Positions 1 through 56,994 of a stretch of 56,994 nucleotides of DNA are shown here, piece after piece (position 1 is the stretch's first letter; the number at the start of each line of letters is the position of its first letter). Position numbers and translations under genes: made by a program. A model generated the notes under the pieces. It saw nothing but the letters and a program-made list of their open reading frames with translations. It did no database searches and was not told the origin of the DNA. Source of the stretch: a virus (lineage: Duplodnaviria; Caudoviricetes); the IMG/VR virus record IMGVR_UViG_3300037310_000048, positions 1 to 56,994 of that record; one strand, 5' to 3'.

Positions 1-142
1 CCGTCCGTCCAGTCGTAGATCGGCCGGCAATGCCGAGCGCCAAACGGGTTGGCCTTCGTGAGGTGGCCGCCCGCCGAGATCACGGAGCACGAGCGGATGA
101 TCGACTCCTGCGCGCGCACCCCCATCCAGACGAACAGGTCCC
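1..142. repeat. Terminal direct repeat, left copy (circular assembly overlap)
   Basis: 1-142 matches 56853-56994 except C127 vs A56979; the PAPS-reductase-like gene stays in frame across the junction. Confidence 0.95.
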
Positions 143-587
143 GTCCCTCGGGCGGCGGGAACAGCGCCTTGCTGGTGATCCCCTGAATGTTCTTGTTGGC
201 GATCTCATAGGCGATGCTCGGGGGCTGCCTCACCCAACGGTCGGGCGGAAGCTGCGGATCAAACGCCCAAAAGTAGGGCGCCTCCCGGTTAAACACGTTG
301 ATCACCGGCTGCCGCGCGTACACCCACCGGAAGTCGACCTCGGGACGCTCGGCCACGCGCTCCGCGTATTCGAAGGTCCCCGGGTACATGATCTCGTCGT
401 CCCGCATGACGACCGTCACCGGGAGGTTCCCGGTCATCCGAGCGGCGAGAAGCGTCAGCTCGAGCGTGCAGGTGGAGTCCTTCCCGGCCGAGAACGTCAC
501 CACGAGCCGGTGACCCTGTTCGTACAGCTCCACGATGCGCTGAAGCGCCTGGTGGAACACGTCCATGCCGGTCGGAACGCGCTGCAT
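1..587 (-). CDS. PAPS reductase-like / PP-loop protein (IbrA/YbdN/DndC-like), N-terminal part; continues at 56852-56300 (379 aa total)
   Basis: Manually translated from ATG 587: MQRVPTGMDVFHQALQRIVELYEQGHRLVVTFSAGKDSTC (SxGKDS PP-loop) ... MRDDEIMYPGT; in frame with ORF 56300..56980; missed by ORF track because it spans the ends. Confidence 0.88.
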   Translation of the reverse strand, partial: MQRVPTGMDVFHQALQRIVELYEQGHRLVVTFSAGKDSTCTLELTLLAARMTGNLPVTVVMRDDEIMYPGTFEYAERVAERPEVDFRWVYARQPVINVFNREAPYFWAFDPQLPPDRWVRQPPSIAYEIANKNIQGITSKALFPPPEGRDLFVWMGVRAQESIIRSCSVISAGGHLTKANPFGARHCRPIYDWTD

Positions 588-1283
588 TCAGATCGTCCCC
601 TCGAGCCGTGGAGCGCACCCGGTCGTCGTAACGAGCCGCTCGATCGTCCGCGAGACGCGCCGCGGATGAAGCTCGGTCCCGAGGGATGGGATCCCGAGAC
701 GCTCGGCAGAGACGGCCGCAAGCCCCTGCCCCATGCAGGGATCGAACAGCACGCCGCTGCGACCGTGAAGCGCGGCCACGATCACGTCCGGCTCGTCCAG
801 GCCGGACAGGTCCGGTAGCCGCATCGGTTGTTCACCGACTCGCCCGAGCTGGACGTAGTGGCACTTCGACCGGCCGCCGTTGTAGGTCCCGGGCCAGCGA
901 GCCACCTCGTAGAGCCCTTCCCGCCGGGCCACGTCAAGCACATCGTCGAGGCCGCGCACTCCGTACTCGAGCAGGATCGCGCGCGTCGCCTGCCCGATCG
1001 CGCGGAAGATCGCTGGCATGAGACGACCGAGGAAGTCCACGTCCGACGGGACGCCGGCCTTCTCGCGGAACCCCTCGGCCACGCTCTTTCCCCACGGCGG
1101 ATCGACGTAGGAGAACGATGGCGTCTCGTGACGGCTCAAGAACGCATCGGCGAAGCCGCGCTCGAGGTCCCCGCACCCGATGACGTGGTTCCCGACCCGC
1201 CAGACCTCGCCGACGTTCACGGGAAACCGCTTCCAGGCGTCTCCGTAGGCAGGGCTGTTCACGGATCTGGCCTCCATGTTCAC
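588..1283 (-). CDS. Amino (N6-A/N4-C) DNA methyltransferase-like protein
   Basis: GEVWRVGNHVIGCGD, catalytic-type YVDPPW, C-terminal SAM motif LFDPCMGQG and GTELHP; GTG start overlaps upstream TGA. Confidence 0.75.
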   Translation of the reverse strand: MNMEARSVNSPAYGDAWKRFPVNVGEVWRVGNHVIGCGDLERGFADAFLSRHETPSFSYVDPPWGKSVAEGFREKAGVPSDVDFLGRLMPAIFRAIGQATRAILLEYGVRGLDDVLDVARREGLYEVARWPGTYNGGRSKCHYVQLGRVGEQPMRLPDLSGLDEPDVIVAALHGRSGVLFDPCMGQGLAAVSAERLGIPSLGTELHPRRVSRTIERLVTTTGCAPRLEGTI

Positions 1284-1987
1284 GCCCTCGTCCCGGTGAC
1301 GATCGTCCAGTAGGCGTCCCCGAGCAGGCCGGCAACGGGAGCCTCGAGCCGTGCGAGGCGGGAGATCGTGCGGCGTCCGGCCCGACCGTCGAGCGCGTCG
1401 ATCCGGCGCGACCAGAGCGACCGCACGCGCACGCCGCAGAACGCCGAGCCGCTGAACATGCGCCGAGCGAACCGGCGCGACCACGGGATCCACGGGACGC
1501 CGGAGCCCCGCAGGATGTAGCTCGGCCGGTGCGAGTAGGCCGGGGCGTACCCCATGAGGAAGAACCGGCCGCCGGACCGGAGGTTCCTCGCCACAGACCG
1601 CACGAGCGCGTCCGGCTCGACGTAGGACGCCCCTCCGAACATGGACGTGATCAGGTCGAAGTGCCCCGCCGCGAACGAGCGCACGTCAGCCAAGAGCCAC
1701 TCGGCGTCAGGGTGCTTCTCCTTCGCCCTCGCCAGCATCGCCGGAGAGGCGTCCACACCCACGCTGAACGTCGAGAGCGTCGGGAACCTGTCGAGCAACC
1801 AGCCGGTCCCGCACGCGAGGTCGGCCATGTAGCCGCACTCCCGCACCACCTCACGCACGAGCGGCCCAACGAGACGAGCCACGGCGTCGTCCTCGGCCCG
1901 GTCGATCACTCGAGGGTGCGCGGAGTCGTAGCGGTCAGCCAAGGCGTCGTAGGCCCGCGCCGCGAGCAACGTTTCAGTCCCGTCCAC
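1280..1987 (-). CDS. Class I SAM-dependent methyltransferase
   Basis: YDALADRYD, ADLACGTG, GVDASPAML, FDLIT, LRSGGRF motifs. Confidence 0.88.
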   Translation of the reverse strand: MDGTETLLAARAYDALADRYDSAHPRVIDRAEDDAVARLVGPLVREVVRECGYMADLACGTGWLLDRFPTLSTFSVGVDASPAMLARAKEKHPDAEWLLADVRSFAAGHFDLITSMFGGASYVEPDALVRSVARNLRSGGRFFLMGYAPAYSHRPSYILRGSGVPWIPWSRRFARRMFSGSAFCGVRVRSLWSRRIDALDGRAGRRTISRLARLEAPVAGLLGDAYWTIVTGTRA

Positions 1988-10115: not shown

Positions 10116-10709
10116 TCAGATTGCCGCCTCGCCCGACTCGCCGTTCGGCGGCGTCTTGACGCGCTTACCCGCCTTCTTCTTGGCGGGCTCAGCCTTCGCC
10201 TCCACGATCTCCGCCATGTCGACCTGCGCCGGAGCAGCCGTCATCCAGACGTCCGCTTCGATGTAGTGCGTCAGACGAGCGAGATCGTCCTTCTGGAAGC
10301 GACCCGAGAGACGGAGCGCCATCGTCGCCGTCCCGTTCTCGTCGATCTTGAGCTTCGGACGACCGCGACAGGTGGCCGCTGGCAGGTGGAACACAGGCTT
10401 GCCGCCCTCGGGCATCGCGTACAGGTCCACCGTCAGATCCGGCAGCTTCCCCCGCGCCGTCGAATCCTGCCCGGTCGCGCTCTCGTCCGAGCCGATGCGC
10501 TTGCAGACGTCGGCCGCGCCAGGCCACAGCACCTCGATCGCCTTGTCGAACGACGGATCGACGTCGCCTTCCCCGCCGATCTCGAGGTTCACTTCCACCT
10601 CGGAGACGTGGCGGACAGCGCCCTTCTTCCCGGTCGCCTCCGTCGTCGCACGCACCACCCTGAACGGCCGCATCCGGCCCTTGACCCTCTCGACCTTGAA
10701 CGTCGTCAC
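10116..10709 (-). CDS. Hypothetical protein
   Basis: AGGAAGGA RBS, GTGA overlap. Confidence 0.65.
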   Translation of the reverse strand: MTTFKVERVKGRMRPFRVVRATTEATGKKGAVRHVSEVEVNLEIGGEGDVDPSFDKAIEVLWPGAADVCKRIGSDESATGQDSTARGKLPDLTVDLYAMPEGGKPVFHLPAATCRGRPKLKIDENGTATMALRLSGRFQKDDLARLTHYIEADVWMTAAPAQVDMAEIVEAKAEPAKKKAGKRVKTPPNGESGEAAI

Positions 10710-11788
10710 GATGCTTCCTTCCTCTCCTCACCGGAGAACTTGTCCACGTCAGCGCCCCACGATACCCACCCGGGTCGCGGCTGGCGTGCGAACAACTCGC
10801 ACTTGGAGCCGGGGCACAGCGACTCCACCAGCGCATAGAACTCGTCCGGCTTCCTCGAGTGCTCCCGAAGCGGGGCGTCGAGCCGCGTCGACTGGCCGGA
10901 GAGGAGCACGGTGGGTGCCCCCTTCACAGCGAGGATCGCGTGTTCCGTCTGGCCGCGAAGCCAGTCGCCCATCCCGATCCGATCCTTCACCCAGGTCAAC
11001 ACGGTCTTATGCTCGAATCCCCACCGTCGCACGAGATTGAAGGCGTCGGGCAGGTGAGCGTTCGTCGTCCAGAGCCACAGGATCGAACCCGTCGCGTCCG
11101 CCATGTCCGGCACCGGAAGGCTGGCGATCTCGTCGTGCCCCATGTCGGGGTAGTCCACCTCACCCCGGCGGTCCTCCACCGCCCGGGTGTTCTTCTCGTA
11201 ACGCCAGGGCGGATCGATCACGATCACGCGGAACGGTCCACGAGGTGGTGGCGTCGGCTCTGCGCGCAGCTTCGCCGCCGACTCGTCGCGCCGCATTTCA
11301 CGCACGGCCCGATCGAGCTTCTTCTCCCCGCGGGCCACCGCGTCGTAGAGGTCTGTTCGCCCCGACTCTCGGAGCGCGCGCGCCTTCTGCACAGAGCCAC
11401 GTCCGACCCGGAGAAGGTCCGCCGCCTCCGTCTGTGAAACTGCTCCCGGCCGAGCAGTTGCCGCAGGGCGTCCGGGGACGAGCTGCGCAAGGCGATCGGC
11501 CACGATCGCCCGCTCCGAGACGGAGAGGTGCCGGCGCGTCAGGTTCCGCGCCACGATGAACGCGGTCGGGTCGGCCAACTCGATCACGTTCGTCTCCGGC
11601 TCGATCCCAAGCTCGAGGCAGGCGCGCGCCCGGTTCCGCCCGTCGAGGATGACGCCGGAGCCGTCCACCGAGATCGGCTCAATGAGCCCGTCAGCCCGAA
11701 TGCTGTCCACCAGGGCTATGAACGGAGGCCCCTCGAGCAGCGGGAATGCGTCAGCCGCCGGGTGCGTCTCGCGGTTGCCGATCTTCAT
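10706..11788 (-). CDS. ParB-like N-terminal domain fused to MT-A70 family adenine methyltransferase
   Basis: HPAADAFPLL...LVDSIRADGLIEPI...ILDGRNR (ParB); VIVIDPPW, LWLWTTN, TVLTWVK, HSRKPD, ELFAR...GWVSWG (MT-A70). Confidence 0.88.
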   Translation of the reverse strand: MKIGNRETHPAADAFPLLEGPPFIALVDSIRADGLIEPISVDGSGVILDGRNRARACLELGIEPETNVIELADPTAFIVARNLTRRHLSVSERAIVADRLAQLVPGRPAATARPGAVSQTEAADLLRVGRGSVQKARALRESGRTDLYDAVARGEKKLDRAVREMRRDESAAKLRAEPTPPPRGPFRVIVIDPPWRYEKNTRAVEDRRGEVDYPDMGHDEIASLPVPDMADATGSILWLWTTNAHLPDAFNLVRRWGFEHKTVLTWVKDRIGMGDWLRGQTEHAILAVKGAPTVLLSGQSTRLDAPLREHSRKPDEFYALVESLCPGSKCELFARQPRPGWVSWGADVDKFSGEERKEAS

Positions 11789-13758
11789 CGGGTGCCCCCG
11801 AACAGATCGGGCGTCTCGGCCGCCGCGTAGGCGTCGGGCTCCCTCTCGCCCCACCGCGCCGCCTCCGACTCGGATTGCGGTTCTGCCGTCTCCTGATACG
11901 ACAGGCAGCGTCCATCGTACTTCAGCACCGCCATGCCCTCCCGCGCATCGTCGTGTCGTGCCTTCCAGACGTACAGGAGAACATCGCTCGGTTCTAGCGG
12001 GATCTCTACACGGCGTCCCGCCGCATCCTTGAGCTTCACCTGTCCGGCCGCGTCTGCGCCCCCTGCATCCGTGACACGGTAGACCGTCACTCCATTGTGG
12101 GCCACCTGCTTGATGCTCGAGCTCCCCTTGAGGGCGTCTCCGGTCGGGATGGTCGCCAACTCGATCGCGCCCCGGGGATGGGCAATCAAGAAGATGTGGA
12201 TCCCGAGCTGCACCGCGAGTTGCACGAGGTCCATGCAGACCCGATCGAGGTGCTCGCGCTCCTCCACGTCGGGGTGCCGGCTGATGAAGTGCAGGTGATC
12301 GATCTCGACGTACTTGCAGCCGAGCCGGCGAGCCGCGTAGGTCACGGCGTCGACCACCTCGGAGAAGCTAACACGCCCGTAGTGGTCGAAGACGTAGATC
12401 GGATCCTCGTTCAGCCTCCCGATCGCGCGCATCGCGTCCTCGCGGTCCTGCTCCGTCACGATGGACGAGATCGGGCGCCCGAAGATGCGCTGAAACACCT
12501 TCCGGGCCAGGGCGTCCGGCCCGTCCTCAAGCGAGGAGAGGAGCACCGGATAGCCACGCCGCGCCAGGAGCCCGAGCGCGAAGCTCGTCCACGTCGACTT
12601 CCCGTGCGACGTGTGCCCCGTGACGACGGTCAGCTCGCCGGGGCGCCAACCGCGAAGCAGCTTGTCTAGGCCGATCCACCCCGTCGGCTCCCCAAGCGAC
12701 GCCGCACCCCGATCGATCAGGCCGGTCAGGTGATCCGAGTAAGCCCCTGGTTGCACCACGCGGGCCGTCTCGAGCGGGACCGCCGCATCCACCACGGCAC
12801 GGATGCGCTCCGGGTCCACCTTGGCGCGCACGAGATCGTTAACGTCCTTCGGCCGCTTCCCTGTCGCGGCGGCCACTTCGGCGGAGAGGTCGGGAGGGAC
12901 CGAGGCGATGCGGACCCGGTGCGTCCCGAGCGCCGTGGCAAGCCCGTCCACCGCCTCGTCTCCGGCCTCGTCGTCGTCGTACCAGAGCACAACATCGTCA
13001 GCGTCCGCGAGGATCTCCTTCCAGGCTTGCGGAACGTCGCCCTTCGCGCCGAGCGAGGTCGAAGCCGTCTCCGTGATGCCGGATTGCCAGAGCGAGATCG
13101 CATCAAGCTCACCCTCCACGAGCACCACGCGCCGCCGGTCCCTCACGCCGGCCGCGTTGAACAGGGCGCTCTCACCGCCCTTGGTGCGCTGGAAGCGCCG
13201 CTTCTCCTTGTCCTCCTCGAGATTCCGCATCTTCACGAGGAGCACAGTTTCCCCGTCGACGTAGGGGATCCCAACCGCGCGCTCCTTCCCGCCGCCCGTC
13301 TTGATGTACGCCACCCCAAGCCGGAAGTGCTGTATCGCCGCATCGTCAATCCCTCGCCCATGCAGATAGGCGAGCACCGCGGCCCCGTCATCGTCGCCCT
13401 CAGCGTAGATCCGCATCGCAGCTCGTTCGACGTCCACGAGCGCCACCCCGCAGGACTTGACCCGCGTCGGCATGAACCGCTTCCCTGGCATCGTGACCGC
13501 CGCCATCGCAGAGCGAACCACGGTACGGTCCCGAAGCCGGATGCCGAGCCGATCAGCGAGCTTCCAAATCGAGCCTGCCTCGCCACACCGCTTGCAATCC
13601 CACAGGCCGGAGCCGAGGTTGAGGTACAGGTGCTTCTGCTTCCCGCACGCCGGACAGTCACAGATCGCGTGCAGGCCGCTCGACTCTTTCACCCGCTTTC
13701 GCACCACCAGAGCGGAAGCGATCCGGTCAATCTCGTCCTGGGTTGGCTCTCGGTTCAT
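11785..13758 (-). CDS. Primase-helicase (Zn finger + TOPRIM + DnaB/SF4 helicase, T7 gp4/Twinkle-like)
   Basis: CPAC...CKRC; LVEGELDA, WYDDDEAG, KDVND; Walker A TGHTSHGKST; IDHLH; AHP; LKGSSSIKQ. Confidence 0.9.
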   Translation of the reverse strand: MNREPTQDEIDRIASALVVRKRVKESSGLHAICDCPACGKQKHLYLNLGSGLWDCKRCGEAGSIWKLADRLGIRLRDRTVVRSAMAAVTMPGKRFMPTRVKSCGVALVDVERAAMRIYAEGDDDGAAVLAYLHGRGIDDAAIQHFRLGVAYIKTGGGKERAVGIPYVDGETVLLVKMRNLEEDKEKRRFQRTKGGESALFNAAGVRDRRRVVLVEGELDAISLWQSGITETASTSLGAKGDVPQAWKEILADADDVVLWYDDDEAGDEAVDGLATALGTHRVRIASVPPDLSAEVAAATGKRPKDVNDLVRAKVDPERIRAVVDAAVPLETARVVQPGAYSDHLTGLIDRGAASLGEPTGWIGLDKLLRGWRPGELTVVTGHTSHGKSTWTSFALGLLARRGYPVLLSSLEDGPDALARKVFQRIFGRPISSIVTEQDREDAMRAIGRLNEDPIYVFDHYGRVSFSEVVDAVTYAARRLGCKYVEIDHLHFISRHPDVEEREHLDRVCMDLVQLAVQLGIHIFLIAHPRGAIELATIPTGDALKGSSSIKQVAHNGVTVYRVTDAGGADAAGQVKLKDAAGRRVEIPLEPSDVLLYVWKARHDDAREGMAVLKYDGRCLSYQETAEPQSESEAARWGEREPDAYAAAETPDLFGGTR

Positions 13759-23275: not shown

Positions 23276-23650
23276 ATGATCCCCACGCTCAACTTCTTCT
23301 GCTACCGTGCCAAGCTGATCGCCGTGGTCGATGGCGACACCGCCGACCTTCTCGTTGACCTCGGCTTCCACGTCACTGTCTCATTGCGGTTCCGCCTGTT
23401 CGGGGTCGACGCGCCCGAGAAGCGCGGAGCTGCGTCCGTCGCCGGCAAGGCCGCGCAGGACGCGCTCGAGGCACTCCTGCGGGGCGCGAACGAGATCGTG
23501 GTCGAGACGATGAAGGACAAGACCGAGAAGTACGGGCGGTTTCTCGCCAGGATCTACGTCCGTCCCGTGGCCGGGGCGCCGTGGATCGACGTCAACGCGG
23601 TCATGATCGAGCAGGGCCACGCGACCGCCTATGAGGGGGGCGCCCGGTGA
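23276..23650 (+). CDS. Thermonuclease (staphylococcal nuclease-like)
   Basis: VVDGDT, DLGF, RLFGVDAPE, KYGRFLA, VNAVMIEQGHA. Confidence 0.88.
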   Translation: MIPTLNFFCYRAKLIAVVDGDTADLLVDLGFHVTVSLRFRLFGVDAPEKRGAASVAGKAAQDALEALLRGANEIVVETMKDKTEKYGRFLARIYVRPVAGAPWIDVNAVMIEQGHATAYEGGAR

Positions 23651-24108
23651 ACCTGTCCCCACACTTCACCCTCCGCGAGCTGTCGCGTTCGGAAACCGCT
23701 CTGCGGCGAGGGATCGACAACACGCCGAGCCAAGGCGTGATCGAGAACCTTCGGGCGCTGTGCGTCGCCGTGCTCGAGCCGCTCCGTGAGCACTTCAGCG
23801 TGGTTCGAATCTCGTCCGGCTACCGCTCGCCCGAGCTGAACCGGCTCGCCGGAGGGAGCGTCTCGAGCCAACACGTCCGCGGAGAAGCCGCCGACCTCGA
23901 GATCGACGGGGTGGACAACCTCACCGCAGCCAGGTGGATCGCTGCGAGCCTGCTCCCGTTCGACCAACTGATCCTCGAGTTCTACGTGCCGGGCGATCCG
24001 ACGAGCGGATGGATCCACCTCTCGCACAAGGCGACCGGCAACAGGCGACAGGTGCTCACCGCGAGCCGTAGCGGTGGAGCCGTGCACTACTCGCCCGGCC
24101 TCCCGTAA
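23647..24108 (+). CDS. Peptidase M15A (probable endolysin)
   Basis: LSPHFTLREL, ISSGYRSPELN, SQHVRGEAAD, WIHLS. Confidence 0.88.
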   Translation: MNLSPHFTLRELSRSETALRRGIDNTPSQGVIENLRALCVAVLEPLREHFSVVRISSGYRSPELNRLAGGSVSSQHVRGEAADLEIDGVDNLTAARWIAASLLPFDQLILEFYVPGDPTSGWIHLSHKATGNRRQVLTASRSGGAVHYSPGLP

Positions 24109-24433: not shown

Positions 24434-25234
24434 CTATCGAGCGGAGATCCACTTCTCCGCCGACCTTCGACCATCTTCCCACCGCGCACGGACCTCGTTC
24501 AAGTCCAGGCCGAACTTGAGCCCGTCGCTCTTGGTTTCGATGCGGATCACCTCGGAGCCCTGCTTCCTGCTCGGGTGCGAGAGGTTCGCCGCGTCCATGC
24601 GGAGATCGAACAGGGCCGCCGCGTAGTCGTCCACCCCGCGCACCGGGACCGGCTCTGCGTCGTCCTGATCGGCGAAGCGGATCCCGACCGTCGGGGACGG
24701 ATAGTCGTCGAACAGGCCGTGCGGGAAGTTGTCGGTGGTGCCGCCGTCGACGTAGAGGCGAGCGTTGTTCGGCTCGAGGCGCGCAGCTCGGAAGAAGATC
24801 GGGATCGCCATCGTGCACCTGGCCGCGTCCTTCACGAGAACGTCCGGGTGGGAATCGCGCCCGACTGAGACGGCCCGCCTCGTCCACAGGTCGCAGACGA
24901 CGACGCGGCACGGGAGCACGAGATCCTTCATGCGCCGATCGCCGAACGTCTCGCCGAGGAGCTTGTAGATCGCGTCCCCTTTGTAGATCCCCCATCGGTC
25001 AAGGGGCCACCACGACTTGTCGAGGAGATCGCGGCGCGTGAGCATCTTCTCGCACAGCGCCTTGATCTCGCTGACGCCCATCCCGACCGCCACAGCGAGC
25101 GCGAGAATTCCGCCGCCTGACGCCCCGCCGACCGCGACAGGGCGAAGCCAGTCGGAGAGCGCCTCCCATGCGCCACCGTGGCACGGGATTCTGGTTCCGC
25201 TCCCCGACCACACCAGGCAGGAGTCTCGCTTCAT
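24434..25234 (-). CDS. Patatin-like phospholipase
   Basis: Oxyanion-like SGSGTR, nucleophile GASGG, catalytic YVDGG. Confidence 0.85.
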   Translation of the reverse strand: MKRDSCLVWSGSGTRIPCHGGAWEALSDWLRPVAVGGASGGGILALAVAVGMGVSEIKALCEKMLTRRDLLDKSWWPLDRWGIYKGDAIYKLLGETFGDRRMKDLVLPCRVVVCDLWTRRAVSVGRDSHPDVLVKDAARCTMAIPIFFRAARLEPNNARLYVDGGTTDNFPHGLFDDYPSPTVGIRFADQDDAEPVPVRGVDDYAAALFDLRMDAANLSHPSRKQGSEVIRIETKSDGLKFGLDLNEVRARWEDGRRSAEKWISAR

Positions 25235-43219: not shown

Positions 43220-43639
43220 CTACTGCGTGGTCAGCGTGACGCCGGAGCCGCGCAGCGAGACGTCCACGGCGCCCGTGTCGTCCAGGGGACCGGACGGGCT
43301 GAACGAGGTCGCGAAGGCCACGCCTTCGAACTTCTTGCGCTGCGGAGCCGTCTCCATCGTGAAGTCGAACGGGAACACCGTCTTGGCGAACACGGCGCCA
43401 AGGACGATCTCTTGCCCCGGGTCGCCATCGAGCCACCGGGCGCTGATGTCGAACGTCACGTCGGAGTGGTTCGGCAGGTATTCCCGCACACCGTTGCTGT
43501 CGTGCGTGGTGCACTCCAGCTCGTCGATGTTCAGGTTCAGCGTCACGTCGACGATGCCGCCGAAGTTTTCGAACGTCAGGCCGCCGTCCGGGCTCACCCT
43601 GACCTTGGCGAGCCGTCCGGGGATGCACATTCCGGGCAT
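43220..43639 (-). CDS. Major tail tube protein
   Basis: IDELECTTHDSNGVREYL...FATSFSPSGPLDD...VSLRGSG. Confidence 0.85.
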   Translation of the reverse strand: MPGMCIPGRLAKVRVSPDGGLTFENFGGIVDVTLNLNIDELECTTHDSNGVREYLPNHSDVTFDISARWLDGDPGQEIVLGAVFAKTVFPFDFTMETAPQRKKFEGVAFATSFSPSGPLDDTGAVDVSLRGSGVTLTTQ

Positions 43640-46115: not shown

Positions 46116-47096
46116 CTAGGCCACCGCCGCCGAGAAGAACACACCGAGGATGGACGAGACGACCTTCTGATCCCAGGCGCTCTCGCCCTGGATCTGATCG
46201 CTGTCCCGCACGTCACGGCGGAACCGCTTCATGCGGACGCCCGTCCCCTGCGCACCCGTGAGGCCGGTCCACGCGAACGTGTAGCCCGCGCTCGGCATGT
46301 CGATGCCCGCCGCCGGGGGTGAGTACGTGAGCAGGGCGCTCTTGCCGTGGATGTACGCCATCGTGGCCGTAGCACCCTCCGCCGCCGTGTTGTTCACGGA
46401 CATGGGCACGACCACCTCGCCGATGCCGAGCACAGAGGCCATGAGCTGTTCGTTCAGGATCGACGCCTGGACCTGCTCGAACCGCTCGATGAACTTCGGG
46501 TGGTCGAGGAGCTTCAGGAACACCTCGGCCCCGACCGTGAGCTTCATGCGCAGCGGGTTCACGCCGAGCTTCGCCATGTGGAAGATCTGCGCGCGAATGT
46601 CGGTCACGGGATCCGACGCCGCGTAGTTGCTCCACACCGTGAAGTCGACGCCGCCCACGAGATCCGCCGCCGTGGTGGAGCCGGTCCACACGCCGGTTGT
46701 GAAGTACTTGGTCGCCCAGTCCTTCTCGCGGCGGATGAGCAGCTTCCGCATGACGTCTTCGGTCTTGGTCCGGTCGAGGTCGATCACCTCGTCCTGATTC
46801 GCGCGCTCCTGATCCGAGATCAGGTGCGCGAACTTGTAGACCTTCGCGTTGTAGTTGTCGGTCGAGAGGCGCAGCGCACCGATCGGGGCCTCACCACCGG
46901 GGCCGACCTCGCGCGCTTCATCGCGGTGGAAGTCCGCGCGATCCCAGATGTAGTAGGAGTCGCTCTGCTTCGCGACCGGCACGGTGGGGAACACCCGACC
47001 GGCCACGAAGTTGCGCTCCTCCTGCATGAAGGCGATCGCGATGTTGGTGAGCGGGCGGTTGACGTGAACGTCGCCCGGAGTGGGAAGGCTCGGCAT
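46116..47096 (-). CDS. Major capsid protein
   Basis: LTNIAIAF...VFPTVPVAKQS...WSNYAASDPVTDI...PSAGYTFAW; AAGGAG RBS. Confidence 0.88.
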   Translation of the reverse strand: MPSLPTPGDVHVNRPLTNIAIAFMQEERNFVAGRVFPTVPVAKQSDSYYIWDRADFHRDEAREVGPGGEAPIGALRLSTDNYNAKVYKFAHLISDQERANQDEVIDLDRTKTEDVMRKLLIRREKDWATKYFTTGVWTGSTTAADLVGGVDFTVWSNYAASDPVTDIRAQIFHMAKLGVNPLRMKLTVGAEVFLKLLDHPKFIERFEQVQASILNEQLMASVLGIGEVVVPMSVNNTAAEGATATMAYIHGKSALLTYSPPAAGIDMPSAGYTFAWTGLTGAQGTGVRMKRFRRDVRDSDQIQGESAWDQKVVSSILGVFFSAAVA

Positions 47097-51853: not shown

Positions 51854-51888
51854 GGCGGACCTCCGGCGTCTATCCTACACCGTGTCGT

Positions 51889-52098
51889 TCAGCCGTCATC
51901 CGGTGCCGGGTAGCGGCGAAGGGCACGCTCCGCCACGTTCAGAGCCACGTTCACCTTGAGCCCGAGCGAGTTGCGCACGCCGGCCGCAGCTCGGATCTCC
52001 ACCACGAGGTTCTCGAGCGCGCCCCGCACGGTGCGGAACTGCTCCTCCTGCGGATCCATTGCGTTCGGCCGGTGCGTGTTGGGCGCGTCGTCGTTCAT
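51889..52098 (-). CDS. Hypothetical protein
   Basis: ATGA overlap; MNDDAP... Confidence 0.5.
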   Translation of the reverse strand: MNDDAPNTHRPNAMDPQEEQFRTVRGALENLVVEIRAAAGVRNSLGLKVNVALNVAERALRRYPAPDDG

Positions 52099-52403
52099 GG
52101 TTCCCATCCTGCTCCGTTCACGGGCGACGCCTCGCGCCGCGCCCTCTTGTAGCTTTCTCGTCGCTCGTCGTCCGTCCAGAAGTGCACCGTCTCCGGCCCT
52201 GGATCGGGACAGAGCCCCGCCTTGCTGTGCGCCAGCGGGATCCACACGCGACCGAACCGCTCGGAGGCACGAAAGATCAGCCGGGCGATCGCCTGCGGCT
52301 CCACAGCCGAGTGCGGGAGAGTCGCTCCACAGAGCGCGCACGGCATGAGGAGCGATCCGAGGTGGCGGACAGCGTGCACCTGCCTTCCAACGTCGAGCGT
52401 CAT
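52095..52403 (-). CDS. Hypothetical protein (CxxC)
   Basis: ATGA overlap with terminase stop; GGAGG RBS. Confidence 0.5.
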   Translation of the reverse strand: MTLDVGRQVHAVRHLGSLLMPCALCGATLPHSAVEPQAIARLIFRASERFGRVWIPLAHSKAGLCPDPGPETVHFWTDDERRESYKRARREASPVNGAGWEP

Positions 52404-53908
52404 CCATCCCTCCACGGATTCCCGGTGCGAAGCGCGTCGGTGTCCACCGCAGGGATCCCACGGTCGGAGAAGCGCGCGTTCGCGTAGGCCACCGCGTCCG
52501 CCTTGTCGGGGCTGTGACCAAGGCGCACCTTCAGATCGTCCTTCGGCTCCACCGCGATCAGGCCACGGCTGTTCAGATCCCACCGCATCGCCACGAGCTG
52601 CCGATGAAGCGCCGGATCGGGCGGGAGCGCGATCGGCTCGTCCCCGTTCGGGTCGAGCGCGAGCCGGAGCTGCCAGAACATTTCGGAGCGGCGGTTGACG
52701 TAGCGGTCCCCGTCGTCCGCCCGGATGCCGCCGCGGACCTCCACGGCAAGGTCGCCGTGGATCTGCCGGAGCCGATCGAACACGCCGGCCCCGAGCCCGT
52801 CGGCGTCGATCCGCACCTCGTCCACCGCCACCCCCTGCGACCGCAGCTCCACGAGGTCCCCTTCCAGGGTGGCGACGGTCGCCATCGTGTCCTGCTTCGG
52901 CGCCGTTCGGATGGTGCGCACGCCGGCACCAGGGCGGAAGTCCACGCGCTCCGTCGAGTCGTCTCCGAGCCGCGCGACGTCCACACCAAGGCGTGACCTC
53001 CGCGGCCAGGTCTGCCCTTCCTCGATCGAGCGCCACCGCTCCACAGCCTCGTCAATCCACGGGCTCGGGATCAGCGCACGATCGGCGTCCTTCGGGAACT
53101 GCGCCATGACGCGCGCCTGCCACCGCGGATCTTCCTCGCCCCATTCGAGCCACTTCTCCCTGACCCACAGGGGAGAGACGAGCTGCGGGAAGGGGAGCGC
53201 ACCCGTCACCTTCTCGAACCACGGCCCGGAGTCGAGCCCGTCACCGCGCCTGACGTCCTCGAGCGCGACCCCGAACTTGCTGAAGTTGGGCGTGTCGAAC
53301 GCAGAGACGATGAACTTCTGCACCCCGGCGCGCTTGAACGCCGCGCCGAACGGGCCGCTGTCGTCGGTGGGGTTCCCGATCATCAACATCCGCGCGTGCC
53401 CCGATGCGATCGCGGAGTCGAGGCCCTCATAGACCGTCGGAACGACACCGGCCGCCTCGTCCACCACCACGAACACGTAGGGAGCATGGAAGCCCTGGAA
53501 CTGCGTCGCGTCGTACTCCCGAGCCGTGAAGCCCCACGCCCACCAGTCGTCGGCCATCTTAAGCATCGTCGCCGATGGAGGAAGTGAGCCCCCGAGCGGG
53601 AAGCGGGCATTCTTATAGAGCGTGCGCAGCTCGCGCCACAGGATGCCGCTCACCTGCCGGTGGCTCGAGGCGGTCGTGATCACGATCGCCCGTGGATGGT
53701 TGGCAAGGAACCAGAGCACCGCCGCCGCTGCGACCGTCGACTTGCCGATCGCGTGGCACGAGCGAACAGCCGTGATGCGGTGGTCGCGGATCGACTCGAG
53801 GATCTCGCGCTGCTTCCTCCACGGCCGGAAGCCGAGCACCGTCTCCGTCCACCAAACCGGATCGACGGAGGCGCGCTCTACAGCGTCAAGCTCGTCTGCC
53901 GAGAGCAC
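52400..53908 (-). CDS. terL: Terminase large subunit
   Basis: VRSCHAIGKS (Walker A), VVDEAAG, IGNP, LGVDVARLGDDST, IDADGLGAG, SPDKADA. Confidence 0.93.
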   Translation of the reverse strand: MLSADELDAVERASVDPVWWTETVLGFRPWRKQREILESIRDHRITAVRSCHAIGKSTVAAAAVLWFLANHPRAIVITTASSHRQVSGILWRELRTLYKNARFPLGGSLPPSATMLKMADDWWAWGFTAREYDATQFQGFHAPYVFVVVDEAAGVVPTVYEGLDSAIASGHARMLMIGNPTDDSGPFGAAFKRAGVQKFIVSAFDTPNFSKFGVALEDVRRGDGLDSGPWFEKVTGALPFPQLVSPLWVREKWLEWGEEDPRWQARVMAQFPKDADRALIPSPWIDEAVERWRSIEEGQTWPRRSRLGVDVARLGDDSTERVDFRPGAGVRTIRTAPKQDTMATVATLEGDLVELRSQGVAVDEVRIDADGLGAGVFDRLRQIHGDLAVEVRGGIRADDGDRYVNRRSEMFWQLRLALDPNGDEPIALPPDPALHRQLVAMRWDLNSRGLIAVEPKDDLKVRLGHSPDKADAVAYANARFSDRGIPAVDTDALRTGNPWRDG

Positions 53909-53910
53909 GC

Positions 53911-54156
53911 CTACTCCTCCGGTGGGCTCCAACAGGAGCAGGCAACGTCCTGCGCAACCAGGGCGTCAGCACAGGAGCCGAGCAGATGAACGCACACCGC
54001 GGACACCTGCCTGTCCCTGCTCCACCCGTCCACACATCGGCCAGCGAGATCGACAGACTCGCGGGAGATCCGAACGGCGTCGCCGCGCCACGCGAGGGTC
54101 AGGACGAGCCCCACGAGCAGCACCATTGCGCAGAGCCAACCGCCGACCTCTCTCAC
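53911..54156 (-). CDS. Small Cys-rich membrane protein
   Basis: N-terminal TM segment, six Cys, between terminase subunits. Confidence 0.5.
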   Translation of the reverse strand: MREVGGWLCAMVLLVGLVLTLAWRGDAVRISRESVDLAGRCVDGWSRDRQVSAVCVHLLGSCADALVAQDVACSCWSPPEE

Positions 54157-54701
54157 ACGTCCCCCTCGTCGCGCTTATTCTGCCGACGTGCGGCGTCAAC
54201 GATCTCGCTCCACGTCATGTTCACGCGCTGCGTCTCCTCGTGCGTCGTCTCCGGCTCGCCACGGTTCAGGCGCTCGAGGCGAAGGCCGCGCTCTGCCAGG
54301 TCGGCCGCCGTGCGAACCTCGATCGTCGGCTTCTCCTTCTCGGCCTGGGACTTCTTCGCGTACTTGCCGATCTCGGTCATCCCGAGGGCTTGGAAGGTCT
54401 GCGCCATCTTGATGTGGCGCTCCCGCATGTCGCGGATCGCCTTGAGGTCTGCTTCCCGCTTCACCCGGTCGACGTGGGCATCCCAGGCAGCTGAACGTTC
54501 GCGCCAGCGGTAGCGGTAGCTATTATTGGCGACGGTGATCCGCTTGATCCCGGTCAGCTCCGCCACCTTCGCGTGCGTGCGACTGCCCGGCCCGAGGTCA
54601 CGCCACGCCTGGAATGCGCGCCATGCGTTGTCGTTCTCGCCCGGCTGCCGCGCCCACGGCTCCCGATCGTCGGCAAACTTGGCGAAGGCGCGCTTCCCCA
54701 C
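54153..54701 (-). CDS. terS: Probable terminase small subunit
   Basis: PWARQPGE...AFQAWRDLG...RS/T...WRERSAAWD; upstream of TerL. Confidence 0.7.
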   Translation of the reverse strand: MGKRAFAKFADDREPWARQPGENDNAWRAFQAWRDLGPGSRTHAKVAELTGIKRITVANNSYRYRWRERSAAWDAHVDRVKREADLKAIRDMRERHIKMAQTFQALGMTEIGKYAKKSQAEKEKPTIEVRTAADLAERGLRLERLNRGEPETTHEETQRVNMTWSEIVDAARRQNKRDEGDV

Positions 54702-54704
54702 GGA

Positions 54705-55523
54705 CTACCTCCGGCACCATTCGAGGATGCGTTCCGCCGGGCGGTCGCCGAGCTTCTCGCGCACCAGCTTGCCCTCGGCACCCGTGAACACCACCTGCAA
54801 CTTGTAGATGGCCGCGTCCCGCTTGGCCGCGTCCTTCTCCTCCTCCGAGCGGGCCTCGGCAAGCCGCTTCTCGAGCGCGCGCTGTGCCTCGATTGCCGCC
54901 CCGGATGCCGCCGTGACCTCGGTCCCGTGGTCCCCCTGGTGAACCCTGGCCTCGGTCGAGCCCGACGCCATGACGCCATCCACCGCCGCGTTCTTGGCCG
55001 CCTCCGGCACCCACGCTTGCGAGAACTCCGCTCCGGCGAGGGCCTCGGGTGCCGACACGTCCGAGAGGAGCCGGTTCAGCTCGTCATCCGAGATCATGAG
55101 AGCGTCCGCCGCCCAATCGAGGGCGCCGAGCTTTTGCAGATCGCGGAGAACCTCGGCTTCCAGCTCGATATCGTGGGAGCCGCGCGCCCGGTTGTGCCTG
55201 ATCGTAGCGATGCGCGCCTGCGCCGCGTCCATGTCCACGCGAACGACGGGCACCTCCTTGTAGCCGAGCGCCCGTGCGGCTCGCCAACGGTGCTCGCCGT
55301 CCACGATGACGTCCCCGCGCCCGACCACGATCGGTTGCGTGAAGCCATCCTCCTCGATCGACCGAAGAAGCAGCTCGAAATCGTGCTCGCTCTGCCGGTT
55401 CGGGTTGTAGTCGTTGGCCTTCACGGCGTCGATCGGGAGGTACTCCACCGCGAGCCGCTCGAGCGCCTTCGCCTTGTTTTCGACCTTCGCCTTCCCCTTC
55501 GACCTGACGCGCTTCTCCGTCAC
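54705..55523 (-). CDS. ParB/Sulfiredoxin-domain protein (IbrB/YbdM-like); true start may be ATG 55584 across a G6 frameshift
   Basis: VKANDYNPN, SIEEDGFTQPIV, IVDGEHRW, ATIRHNRARGSH. Confidence 0.88.
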   Translation of the reverse strand: MTEKRVRSKGKAKVENKAKALERLAVEYLPIDAVKANDYNPNRQSEHDFELLLRSIEEDGFTQPIVVGRGDVIVDGEHRWRAARALGYKEVPVVRVDMDAAQARIATIRHNRARGSHDIELEAEVLRDLQKLGALDWAADALMISDDELNRLLSDVSAPEALAGAEFSQAWVPEAAKNAAVDGVMASGSTEARVHQGDHGTEVTAASGAAIEAQRALEKRLAEARSEEEKDAAKRDAAIYKLQVVFTGAEGKLVREKLGDRPAERILEWCRR

Positions 55524-55580
55524 GGTCGCGGCCGTGTCCTCGGGGGGTGAGCTTCTCGATCTTGCCGGCTTCCGTGTCGC

Positions 55581-56303
55581 TCATGTCGTCGCTCTCCTGT
55601 CGTGCACGCCAGGGATCGGCGGGCCGCGGTACATCATCCAGTTTTTCAGCGTGAACGCCTCGGGCCTGTTCAGCACCTCAGGCGCAGCACGGCCAGCGTG
55701 CCAATCCACCGGAGAACCATCCCAAAGGCGCGAAGCCGTCCTCGAGATCGGAGGGTTGTTCCCCTGGACCGACTTCACCCCGACGTGCTCGACGAGGGAC
55801 GGGTTCGTGATCCACCACGACACCCCACGCGCCACGGACCAAAGGCGCATCCGATCATCGTCGTGCGGTGCCGCAGGGTCGACGTGTGCACGCTCCCACC
55901 GCAGGAAGTCCTCCACGAGCCCGGCCGGCATGGCGAGCGCGCACCCCGTCCCGGGAGAGGGTGAGACGATCCACGAGGAACCGGAGGCTGTGGCCTTCTT
56001 GACCGAGGACCCGTGAAACGAGAAGAATGCGACCGGGTTCTCGCTGGCGACCTCGAGCACCCGAGCCACCTCGACGGCGAATCCTGCGCACAGTCGAACG
56101 TCGTCCTGAAGGACGAGGTGGTGGGAGGCCCACGACTGTCTCTGAAGCCAGGACCGACGAGCGGTGTGCCAGAGGTTCCGCCGTGTGTCCTTCACCACGG
56201 CCGGCGTGATGCCGCCCCGGCGCAGCTCGCGCACCATGTCGACGACGCACGCGCGCCGCTCCGGCACCCAATCACAGTGCATGATGGCAACGGATAGGTT
56301 CAT
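55581..56303 (-). CDS. GT-A fold glycosyltransferase-like protein
   Basis: SVAIMH...ERR, HHLVLQDDV, HDD, PSLVEHVG; ATGA overlap with upstream gene. Confidence 0.65.
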   Translation of the reverse strand: MNLSVAIMHCDWVPERRACVVDMVRELRRGGITPAVVKDTRRNLWHTARRSWLQRQSWASHHLVLQDDVRLCAGFAVEVARVLEVASENPVAFFSFHGSSVKKATASGSSWIVSPSPGTGCALAMPAGLVEDFLRWERAHVDPAAPHDDDRMRLWSVARGVSWWITNPSLVEHVGVKSVQGNNPPISRTASRLWDGSPVDWHAGRAAPEVLNRPEAFTLKNWMMYRGPPIPGVHDRRATT

Positions 56304-56994
56304 GCCGCCGGGTTCCCTCCCCACGTCCCCGCACCTAAGCGGAAGAACTCGGGCTCGACGTAGGGCAGGAAGCTCGCCTTCTGCGCGAACGGGTCGCCCA
56401 GGAACATCGCCTGCGTCAGCTTGCGCCAACTGTTTGTCGAGGCGTTGCAGGAGTTGCACGTCTCCCGCTCGGGGAACGGCGTCGTGGCGTGCGCCCGGTG
56501 CGCCTTGAGCATCCGACCTCGCGCCAGCTCCGCACGGGCCGCGATCCACTTCGGCGCCTCCACCATGCAGACGCGCGTGAAGCACTCCTCCCACGTCTCG
56601 CCCGCGCGTCGGTGCGGCTGAACAGCCTTCGGCCCGTAGTGCGCGATCGCTCGGAACCCTGGTAACCGCTCGTCCACCCTATCGAACCACGACGGCCACG
56701 CCTGTTGCGCGATGCGAATCTGATCGGCGCCCGCCGGGCTCTGTGACGGAGGAGCGATGCGGAGCTTCCGCGCCGGCATTCCATGGCGGTGGAACACGTC
56801 GTAGGCGTGGTTATAGTCCCACCTGTTCGTGCCGATCGCGCGCCACACGTCGCCGTCCGTCCAGTCGTAGATCGGCCGGCAATGCCGAGCGCCAAACGGG
56901 TTGGCCTTCGTGAGGTGGCCGCCCGCCGAGATCACGGAGCACGAGCGGATGATCGACTCCTGCGCGCGCACCCCCATCAAGACGAACAGGTCCC
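56300..56994 (-). CDS. PAPS reductase-like protein, C-terminal part (begins at 587)
   Basis: GVRAQESIIR, RPIYDWTDGDVW, WDYNHAYD, LRIAPP, CNSC. Confidence 0.88.
   Translation of the reverse strand, partial: DLFVLMGVRAQESIIRSCSVISAGGHLTKANPFGARHCRPIYDWTDGDVWRAIGTNRWDYNHAYDVFHRHGMPARKLRIAPPSQSPAGADQIRIAQQAWPSWFDRVDERLPGFRAIAHYGPKAVQPHRRAGETWEECFTRVCMVEAPKWIAARAELARGRMLKAHRAHATTPFPERETCNSCNASTNSWRKLTQAMFLGDPFAQKASFLPYVEPEFFRLGAGTWGGNPAA
56853..56994. repeat. Terminal direct repeat, right copy
   Basis: Copy of 1-142 with one mismatch. Confidence 0.95.

Follow-up and report, generated by a model that had tools for sequence, protein, structure and literature searches.

The virus record IMGVR_UViG_3300037310_000048 of IMG/VR (56,994 bases, 67.7% guanine plus cytosine, GC), which was analysed over its whole length and is referred to here as the window, carries five translationally coupled minus-strand open reading frames (ORFs) directly ahead of its packaging genes. 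They belong to a conserved phage cassette that consists of a class I methyltransferase (MT1), an IbrA-like PP-loop enzyme, an optional glycosyltransferase (GT), an optional methyltransferase with a DPPW motif (MT2) and an IbrB-like ParB-domain protein (hereafter ParB), followed by the terminase small subunit (TerS). By its PP-loop enzyme and its ParB partner the central pair is a member of the IbrA/IbrB type, and is not of the Dnd, Ssp or BREX-4 type. We judge the chances to be roughly balanced that this is a single IbrA/IbrB-type cassette with which the phage modifies its own DNA, in a ParB-guided and adenylation-based process with optional additions of sugar and methyl groups.

Organization and recurrence of the cassette

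The original prediction of five coupled minus-strand genes ahead of TerS and the terminase large subunit (TerL) is borne out by the positions of the ORFs and by the overlapping or abutting codons at their junctions. The order is MT1, MT2, IbrA (across the contig ends), GT and ParB, and then TerS and TerL; the features of the cassette are as follows, with the supporting matches in brackets.

1280..1987, minus strand: MT1, class I S-adenosylmethionine-dependent methyltransferase, 235 residues (Pfam Methyltransf_25, 2.2e-13; Methyltransf_11, 2.8e-13)
588..1283, minus strand: MT2, divergent protein resembling beta-class amino-methyltransferases, about 229-231 residues (DPPW and DxCxGxG motifs)
1..587, minus strand, in frame from 587 to 3: N-terminal part of the IbrA-like PP-loop ATPase of the PAPS-reductase family (phrog_2302, 6.5e-36)
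56300..56994, minus strand: C-terminal part of the IbrA-like protein (phrog_2302, 1e-23), of which 56853-56994 duplicates 1-142
55581..56303, minus strand: GT, glycosyltransferase of GT-A fold, 240 residues (phrog_854 'glucosyltransferase', 1.2e-11; predicted fold)
55524..55584, minus strand: probable N-terminal extension of ParB, its frame broken in a run of six C residues (likeness to homologue N-termini)
54705..55523, minus strand: IbrB-like ParB/Srx protein, 272 residues from GTG 55523 (ParB_N, 3.7e-13; phrog_2159, 4.3e-40)

The stop codon of MT1 (TGA 1280-1282) overlaps the start codon of MT2 (GTG 1281-1283) within the sequence GTGA at 1280-1283, the ATG at 1275-1277 taken by the gene caller being an alternative start for MT2. 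The stop of MT2 (TGA 588-590) abuts the start of IbrA (ATG 585-587), and the stop of IbrA and the start of GT lie within a shared ATGA at 56300-56303. ParB ends at TAG 54705-54707, with a gap of 3 nt to the GTG of TerS at 54701. As had been predicted, the PP-loop gene spans the contig ends, but it does so through an overlap of 142 bases and not by simple abutment. End-to-end sequence comparison revealed that positions 1-142 are a direct repeat of 56853-56994 with one mismatch, which gives either tryptophan or leucine at one IbrA codon. With this 142-base repeat at both ends, the record probably represents a complete genome, either circularly permuted or terminally redundant, and its class of "linear, 65% complete" is accounted for.

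The start of ParB had been placed at 55584. The ATG at 55582-55584 overlaps the GT stop and lies in the region of the N-terminal extension, but is out of frame with the ParB ORF (54705-55523), in which the first start is GTG 55523. Upstream of this GTG the ParB frame encodes PPEDTAATVTEK, and the point of the frame change is a C6 homopolymer run at 55542-55547 on the minus strand. Since the upstream peptide resembles the N-termini of homologues, one surplus C in this run is likely; it would be an artefact of assembly or else a genuine frameshift, after which translation restarts at GTG 55523.

A search of IMG/VR with the N-terminal half of IbrA returned 12 loci with 44-59% identity and GC contents of 0.29-0.72, against which the window proteins were compared by tblastn: MT1 was found in 11 of the 12, ParB in 10, TerS in 9, MT2 in 8 and GT in 2, with the genes on a single strand in every case. 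A wider search with an alignment of eight IbrA proteins gave 60 IMG/VR loci, equivalent to 42 groups at 85% DNA identity, in which genes were called by local hidden Markov models (HMMs). ParB is present in 40 of the 42 IbrA groups and MT1 in 34 (32 of the 37 in which there is upstream room); a member of the same GT family is found in 19 (~45%), MT2 in 16 and, with a narrow TerS profile, TerS after ParB in 16. The groups that bear a GT range in GC content from 0.32 to 0.72, and in 13 of these 19 IbrA and a ParB flank the GT. The order of the cassette genes differs among loci, and L096 and L101 are natural variants that hold the whole set together.

A second collection, of species-representative binned genomes, contributed 18 loci, all with MT1, 15 with ParB, nine with MT2 and two with GT (18/18, 15/18, 9/18 and 2/18); the names of the bins include Ignavibacteria, Kapabacteria, Dehalococcoidia, Planctomycetia, Gemmatimonadetes and Actinomycetota. 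The original prediction had looked to co-occurrence of the five genes in other phages, and the set does recur, reshuffled, across the 42 IMG/VR groups and the 18 genome loci. Approached from the GT side, IMG/VR gave 59 loci (40 groups), of which seven loci (six groups) carry IbrA and ParB in an order unlike that of the window; the loci recovered in this way include divergent IbrA types of 23-25% identity. Fusions between cassette members were also seen, each as a single ORF: MT1 with PAPS_reduct in a protein of 671 residues (L147), GT with MT2 (P0027), and two GT domains with a weak ParB domain (P0010). In two cassettes that lack a GT, the slot after IbrA holds a small ORF of 107-120 residues with no Pfam match (L008, 7098-7460; L013, 5579-5902).

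Protein families of the cassette

IbrA comprises about 379 codons when the end overlap is counted once; it was analysed as two halves together with a 55-56% identical homologue (L014/L079). One half aligns to positions 10-205 of the phrog_2302 profile and the other to 163-298, together covering 10-298 of 381. The N-terminal half matches Pfam PAPS_reduct at 1.9e-4 and 22.0 bits, slightly below the cut-off of 22.5, and there are weak NCBIfam matches to CysD (1.4e-5). In an alignment of 18 rows with 20-56% identity, the S[GA]GKD[ST] block of the PP-loop (SAGKDS in the window) is nearly invariant and the GxRxxES and PI[YF]D (PIYDW) motifs are kept. The same 18 rows contain no invariant or near-invariant cysteine; a CxxC motif occurs only in the close IbrA subfamily, and L047, Phlyer gp4 and RHph_I4 do not have it. 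The DUF3440 domain found at the C-terminus of YbdN/IbrA was not detected in the window subfamily, Pfam at E<=0.01 returning PAPS_reduct alone for the C-terminal part in the window and for the full-length L079 homologue; the C-terminal region is conserved within the subfamily despite this.

In ParB, the DGEHR and RHN motifs are invariant in 33 homologues, which share a conserved C-terminal domain joined by a variable linker, and the GxxR nucleotide-binding motif of ParB CTPase clamps lies within the invariant D-G-E-H-R. The structure model has a predicted local distance difference test (pLDDT) score of 77.9, and consists beyond the ParB fold of helices at 119-154, a disordered linker at 161-187 and a C-terminal beta-hairpin with four helices, with no Pfam match to a helix-turn-helix domain. 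Its nearest folds in the PDB are pNOB8 ParB-N, Noc, CTP- or CDP-bound ParB and KorB (1e-7 to 1e-5), with SerK and sulfiredoxin (Srx) matching only near 1e-3; weak NCBIfam matches to the serine kinase SerK are also found at the level of sequence. ParB matches the ParB domain of the phrog_498 DNA methyltransferases at 3.3e-29.

This pairing of a PP-loop enzyme with a co-operonic ParB_N protein is the one found in E. coli IbrAB and YbdN/YbdM and in phage pairs of phrog_2302 with phrog_2159, so that the assignment to the IbrA/IbrB type made in the original prediction stands, on the matches to phrog_2302 and to ParB_N/phrog_2159 and on the pairs present in cultured phages. The cultured examples share only 22-31% identity with the window. 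The close subfamily has no cultured representative: 214 records match the L079 IbrA, each at under 60% identity, with 29% for the best of those listed. Among them, gp4/gp5 of Mycobacterium phage Phlyer likewise lie directly ahead of the terminase, and in Rhizobium phage RHph_I4 the pair is accompanied by a further ParB and a methyltransferase. The window subfamily differs from plain IbrA/IbrB in its added genes: a class I methyltransferase that is almost constant and, in many cases, genes for a GT-A enzyme and a DPPW methyltransferase located between the two. More distant pairs are found elsewhere in their genomes: Nebkiss gp103/104 between a helicase and a GIY-YIG nuclease, that of CHPC877 after the lysis genes, and others, in further cultured records, with a helicase adjoining the IbrA gene. 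In cluster B3 mycobacteriophages, which have no annotated TerS, TerL comes directly after an IbrB-like gene. The literature searched, with subscription papers and supplements outside the search, contained no biochemical function for the IbrA/IbrB pair and no link between it and this GT.

Among PAPS-reductase-family enzymes that modify DNA, the phosphorothioation proteins DndC, SspD and BrxP share with the window the combination of a PP-loop enzyme and, in the case of DndB, a ParB-superfamily partner acting on DNA. The description of DndC in PMC10853773 gives it a 4Fe-4S site with three cysteines and also a cysteine dyad, whereas no cysteine is invariant in IbrA. Because it lacks a conserved cysteine, IbrA is predicted not to be a sulfur inserter of the DndC type. 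Scans of further window ORFs (60 with PHROGs, 18 with Pfam) found no cysteine desulfurase and no gene of the DndD/E or SspB/C type, although a host IscS could substitute for the former. The analogy with phosphorothioation drawn in the original prediction is weakened by these results, and phosphorothioation itself was set aside on the same two grounds, the lack of conserved IbrA cysteines and of partner genes in the window.

MT1 is a generic class I enzyme, with best PDB sequence matches to UbiG (5.1e-10) and to an N,N-dimethyltransferase (5.8e-10); four of its 19 PDB matches are named dTDP-3-amino-3,6-dideoxy-glucose N,N-dimethyltransferase. MT2 has no match in Pfam, PHROG or NCBIfam, and none to PF01555 even at E<=1. 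In MT2, D61-P-P-W64 lies upstream of D181xCxGxG187 (FDPCMGQG in the window), and both are invariant in 10 aligned homologues; this order, with motif IV before motif I, fits the beta-class N6/N4 amino-methyltransferases. MT2 also weakly resembles the TTHA0409-type methylase 2zie around motif I (E 0.7). The MT2 profile matches the ParB-methyltransferase fusions of phrog_498, and it matches P0027, a fusion with GT, in its C-terminal half; P0027 itself hits PF01555 at 4.5e-9 over the motif I region. A word-index search gave three relatives of MT2, and no similarity was found between MT2 and the methyltransferase that occupies the same position in RHph_I4.

The AlphaFold2 model of the GT has a mean pLDDT of 93.5 and adopts a GT-A fold. 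Foldseek matches include Mimivirus R655 (3.9e-7), POMGnT1, GnT-I and GalNAc-T2, and fold matches in BFVD include Ardmore gp87 and a Hendrix glycosyltransferase. An exhaustive HMMER search, on which our estimate of family size rests, recovered 1507 representatives at E<=1e-3, where a word-index search had found five relatives. The QDD and HDDxR motifs are conserved in this family, which is absent from Pfam: none of the 89 members scanned had a convincing match, the commonest being Glyco_tranf_2_3 (2/89, best E 0.0029). The family profile matches phiAsp2 Pas35 (1.7e-48), Ardmore gp87 (5.1e-26) and Corndog gp38 (2.2e-23), and the window GT matches Corndog gp38 by direct BLASTP at 3.7e-6. Ardmore gp87 is of the cluster F1 gene-110 type, being 97% identical to gene 110 of DillTech15, and its relatives occur in 734 of 50,697 cultured phage records (~1.4%). 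A 2025 paper describes Che8 gp110 and Corndog gp38 as the two glycosyltransferases essential for capsid glycosylation. The window GT shares with these actinobacteriophage enzymes (the Che8 gp110 type, such as Ardmore gp87; Corndog gp38; phiAsp2 Pas35) its family by profile and its predicted fold and, with those of Corndog and phiAsp2, a methyltransferase in the late operon. It differs from them in its identity of ~27-29% and in its neighbours, which for the actinobacteriophage genes are other GTs and head or tail genes, and not IbrA/ParB.

In order to place the window GT among its relatives, a quick, unrooted maximum-likelihood tree was computed from 68 dereplicated domains (26 IbrA-linked, 38 not linked, three cultured, and the window). 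The three cultured GTs sit in a clade of 29 rows with a support of 97 in the Shimodaira-Hasegawa-like approximate likelihood ratio test (SH-aLRT); this clade is free of IbrA-linked rows and does not include the window GT. Mapped on the tree, the IbrA label changes four times, compared with a shuffled mean of 21.1, and none of 500 shuffles was as low, although near-copies inflate this clustering. The nearest rows to the window GT are all IbrA-linked, its own placement being without starred support. Even so, the IbrA-linked GTs have long been inherited together with the rest of the cassette, and are not virion GTs that it captured recently. The position of the GT within the PP-loop/ParB pair, which had been described as an insertion, is thus better seen as that of a long-standing cassette member, present in 19 of the 42 groups and cohesive in the tree, than as the result of a one-off event.

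Other members of the GT family show further arrangements. One that is not linked to IbrA (L038, 5472-5876) stands directly after TerS/TerL and adjoins a gene resembling heptose-1-phosphate adenylyltransferases (phrog_7878, 2.5e-29), a neighbour which hints that some family members use ADP-activated sugars. Tandem GT-GT proteins of ~490 residues and fusions to GNAT acetyltransferase domains were also observed (P0009, P0015, P0019, P0049, P0077; P0039, P0095, P0125). A predicted complex of GT and MT2, both supplied as alignments, scored 0.00 against a mark of 0.32; with no control runs, this counts neither way. Inspection of the window's capsid, tail-tube and fibre-like proteins revealed no interpretable glycosylation tail.

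Proposed DNA modification and alternative readings

We infer DNA hypermodification as the product of the cassette, and consider DNA to be a likelier target than the virion. Several signals point towards DNA, because the fold of ParB is nearest to ParB, Noc and KorB and its sequence matches phrog_498; because MT2 carries amino-methyltransferase motifs and is kin to ParB-fused DNA methylases; because the distant IbrA/IbrB pairs of the cultured phages Nebkiss and CHPC877 lie away from structural genes; and because there are precedents in DndC, SspD, BrxP, DndB, DpdB and the activator of the thymine dioxygenase 5mYOX. As published, DndC, SspD and BrxP are PAPS-reductase-family proteins that modify DNA, the ParB homologues DndB and DpdB act with DNA modifiers, and a phage ParB activates 5mYOX on double-stranded DNA and is required there. 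ParB-like genes are also reported to be enriched near 5mYOX, and GT-A enzymes acting on DNA exist. The original interpretation of the genes as a DNA-hypermodification operon is supported in part: the conserved set and its IbrA/IbrB type speak for it, and its analogy with phosphorothioation is weakened.

In the process that we propose, double-stranded DNA would be modified after replication. The ParB-like protein would give the enzymes access to DNA by binding it, probably in the role of a clamp or activator that depends on a nucleotide, by analogy with the ParB homologues that serve DpdA and the phage thymine dioxygenases. IbrA would then spend ATP to adenylate an oxygen on the base or the backbone, and the activated site would be substituted by a nucleophile other than a cysteine persulfide. 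MT1, which accompanies IbrA almost constantly and is in some cases fused to it, may methylate the new group; where the genes are present, the GT-A enzyme may add a sugar and the DPPW methyltransferase may methylate an amino group. Such a scheme shares its stepwise logic, activation followed by sugar transfer, with the post-replicative hypermodification clusters of phages, in which a C5-methyltransferase or 5mYOX is combined with a GT and in some cases with ParB. It differs in that PHROG and Pfam scans of the window found no dioxygenase, C5-methyltransferase or hydroxymethylase. The cassette is located at the head of the packaging operon, and its link to packaging is one of gene position only.

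Several observations weigh against this reading. The PHROG and Pfam scans detected no 5mYOX/TET enzyme, thymidylate-synthase-like hydroxymethylase or other maker of a hydroxyl acceptor in the window. Kinases and adenylyltransferases of small molecules are also found in the ParB/Srx fold and the PAPS-reductase family, and the best PDB sequence matches of MT1 are small-molecule and dTDP-amino-sugar methyltransferases. Each of the fusions described above is one case, and a sequencing indel between overlapping genes could make one. PHROG annotation of GT loci not linked to IbrA covered 15 of their 33 representatives, with 75 of the 232 neighbouring ORFs; nine of these 15 have a head, tail or terminase gene within 3.2 kb, and six have other GTs or methyltransferase/GT genes of phrog_2675, phrog_8156 or phrog_14775 nearby. 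The only studied relatives of the GT, Corndog gp38 and Che8 gp110, act on virion proteins, as reported in the 2025 paper. A preprint gives TarP as the top PDB match of known phage DNA-acting GT-A enzymes (5hmC/5hmU, JGT-like), with R...DDD...EDY/F motifs; TarP is not among the listed PDB matches of the window GT. Finally, the chemistry of every step in the cassette is proposed, and its substrate inferred.

In its most specific form the proposal amounts to a chemically new DNA modification, in which a ParB-recruited PP-loop enzyme adenylates a base or backbone oxygen, with substitution, methylation and, in ~45% of lineages, glycosylation to follow. We regard this version as possible but doubtful, and no precedent for a PP-loop ATPase as the activating enzyme on a DNA base was found in the literature searched. 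If true, it would mean DNA glycosylation without a hydroxymethyl-pyrimidine precursor, just before packaging, in phages of many bacterial phyla.

A split of function is an unlikely alternative: IbrA, ParB and the methyltransferases would act on DNA, and the GT would glycosylate capsid or tail and be co-located only as a late accessory gene ahead of the terminase. The profile matches of the GT to Corndog gp38, Ardmore gp87 and phiAsp2 Pas35 are consistent with this division, as is the capsid role called essential for Che8 gp110 and Corndog gp38 in the 2025 paper. Furthermore, 23 of the 42 IbrA groups are free of GT, so the core is independent of it, and IbrA with ParB occurs in only six of the 40 GT-family locus groups. 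The virion-glycosylation alternative raised in the original prediction thereby gains specific support and is a serious rival, in that the family includes Corndog gp38 and the F1 gene-110 type, to which that paper assigns the capsid role; the IbrA-linked GTs nevertheless lie outside that clade. It is also hard to square an accessory gene with a GT that is embedded in the IbrA/ParB pair in 13 of its 19 groups and has overlapping codons in the window, with the GT-MT2 and GT-GT-ParB fusions, or with a 45% share (19/42) of this one family in IbrA cassettes, far above the ~1.4% (734/50,697) of cultured records that have a gp87 relative.

Quite improbable, in our judgement, is a cassette that as a whole makes an activated sugar or small group and transfers it onto virion proteins, with ParB/Srx as kinase, IbrA as adenylyltransferase, MT1 tailoring the donor and GT transferring it. 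CysD and eukaryotic FAD synthetase are adenylyltransferases of the PAPS-reductase family, and IbrA has its weak match to CysD (1.4e-5). A sugar donor would likewise suit the four of 19 MT1 matches to dTDP-3-amino-3,6-dideoxy-glucose N,N-dimethyltransferase chains, the heptose-1-phosphate adenylyltransferase-like gene beside the GT relative in L038, and the lack in the window of a detected pathway to a hydroxyl-bearing base precursor. The weak matches of ParB to the SerK sequence and to the SerK and Srx folds could be read in the same way, but the fold matches of ParB to the DNA-binding proteins ParB, Noc and KorB (1e-7) are much stronger than those to SerK or Srx (1e-3). The action of GT relatives on virions fits such a cassette, whereas the transferase is absent from over half of the cassettes, the distant IbrA/IbrB pairs occupy replication or early regions and have no GT there, and MT2 and the ParB-methyltransferase relatives indicate DNA.

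The database name of the IbrA/IbrB pair is 'co-activator of prophage gene expression', and the original genetics of IbrA/IbrB reportedly assigned it such a role for prophage (eib) genes. That IbrA and ParB are regulators or packaging-specificity factors, which activate late transcription or mark the packaging start with the transferases as unrelated passengers, is nonetheless very improbable: this name, the opening of the packaging operon by the cassette directly before TerS, and the IbrB-like gene directly before TerL in cluster B3 mycobacteriophages without an annotated TerS are outweighed by catalytic motifs (S[GA]GKD[ST], GxRxxES) that are near-invariant at 20-56% identity, by an MT1 that is almost constant and once fused to IbrA, and by the separate TerS of the window. 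A small chance is left over for explanations of another kind.

Pairs of the IbrA/IbrB type are annotated in hundreds of phage and prophage genomes, and the window and its relatives represent a richer form of the pair, in which five enzyme families are tied together by neighbourhood, variable order and fusions. If DNA is the target, as we favour, the cassette would offer phages a new way to make hypermodified, and possibly glycosylated, DNA, with a bearing on restriction evasion, sequencing artefacts in viromes and the sourcing of enzymes. If the virion is the target, the PP-loop/ParB pair would be tied to phage glycan shields, which affect the immune recognition of therapeutic phages, according to the 2025 paper. 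Either target would account for a widespread gene set.

Genome layout and other genes of the window

PHROG and Pfam scans of the window ORFs indicate a siphovirus-like layout. Packaging and structural genes encode TerS, TerL, a Mu-type portal, MuF, a major head protein (46116-47096), a tail-tube candidate (43220-43639) and a tape measure, and replication genes encode a primase/helicase, a helicase, an exonuclease, a Sak4-like annealase, a single-stranded-DNA-binding protein and RuvC; these scans detected neither a DNA polymerase nor a dioxygenase, a thymidylate-synthase homologue or a cysteine desulfurase. The terminase genes that follow the cassette are:

54153..54701, minus strand: terminase small subunit, TerS (phrog_6299, 5.2e-20)
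52400..53932, minus strand: terminase large subunit, TerL (phrog_2, 1e-35)

The gap of 547 bases between TerL and the portal (51854-52399, minus strand) contains two small ORFs with high GC at third codon positions. One encodes ~100 residues with a CxxC...H spacing reminiscent of the small HNH endonucleases found next to terminases, and the other encodes 72 residues.

The window encodes another ParB-domain protein at 10706-11854 on the minus strand, in which the domain is joined to an MT-A70 adenine methyltransferase (PF05063, 2.3e-32; phrog_359). Its gene adjoins the primase/helicase of the replication module; the phage has in total three methyltransferase genes and two ParB domains. The endolysin is located at 23647-24108, and near it a patatin-like phospholipase (24434-25234, minus strand; PF01734, 8.6e-27) is possibly a lysis accessory enzyme directed against a lipid-rich envelope.

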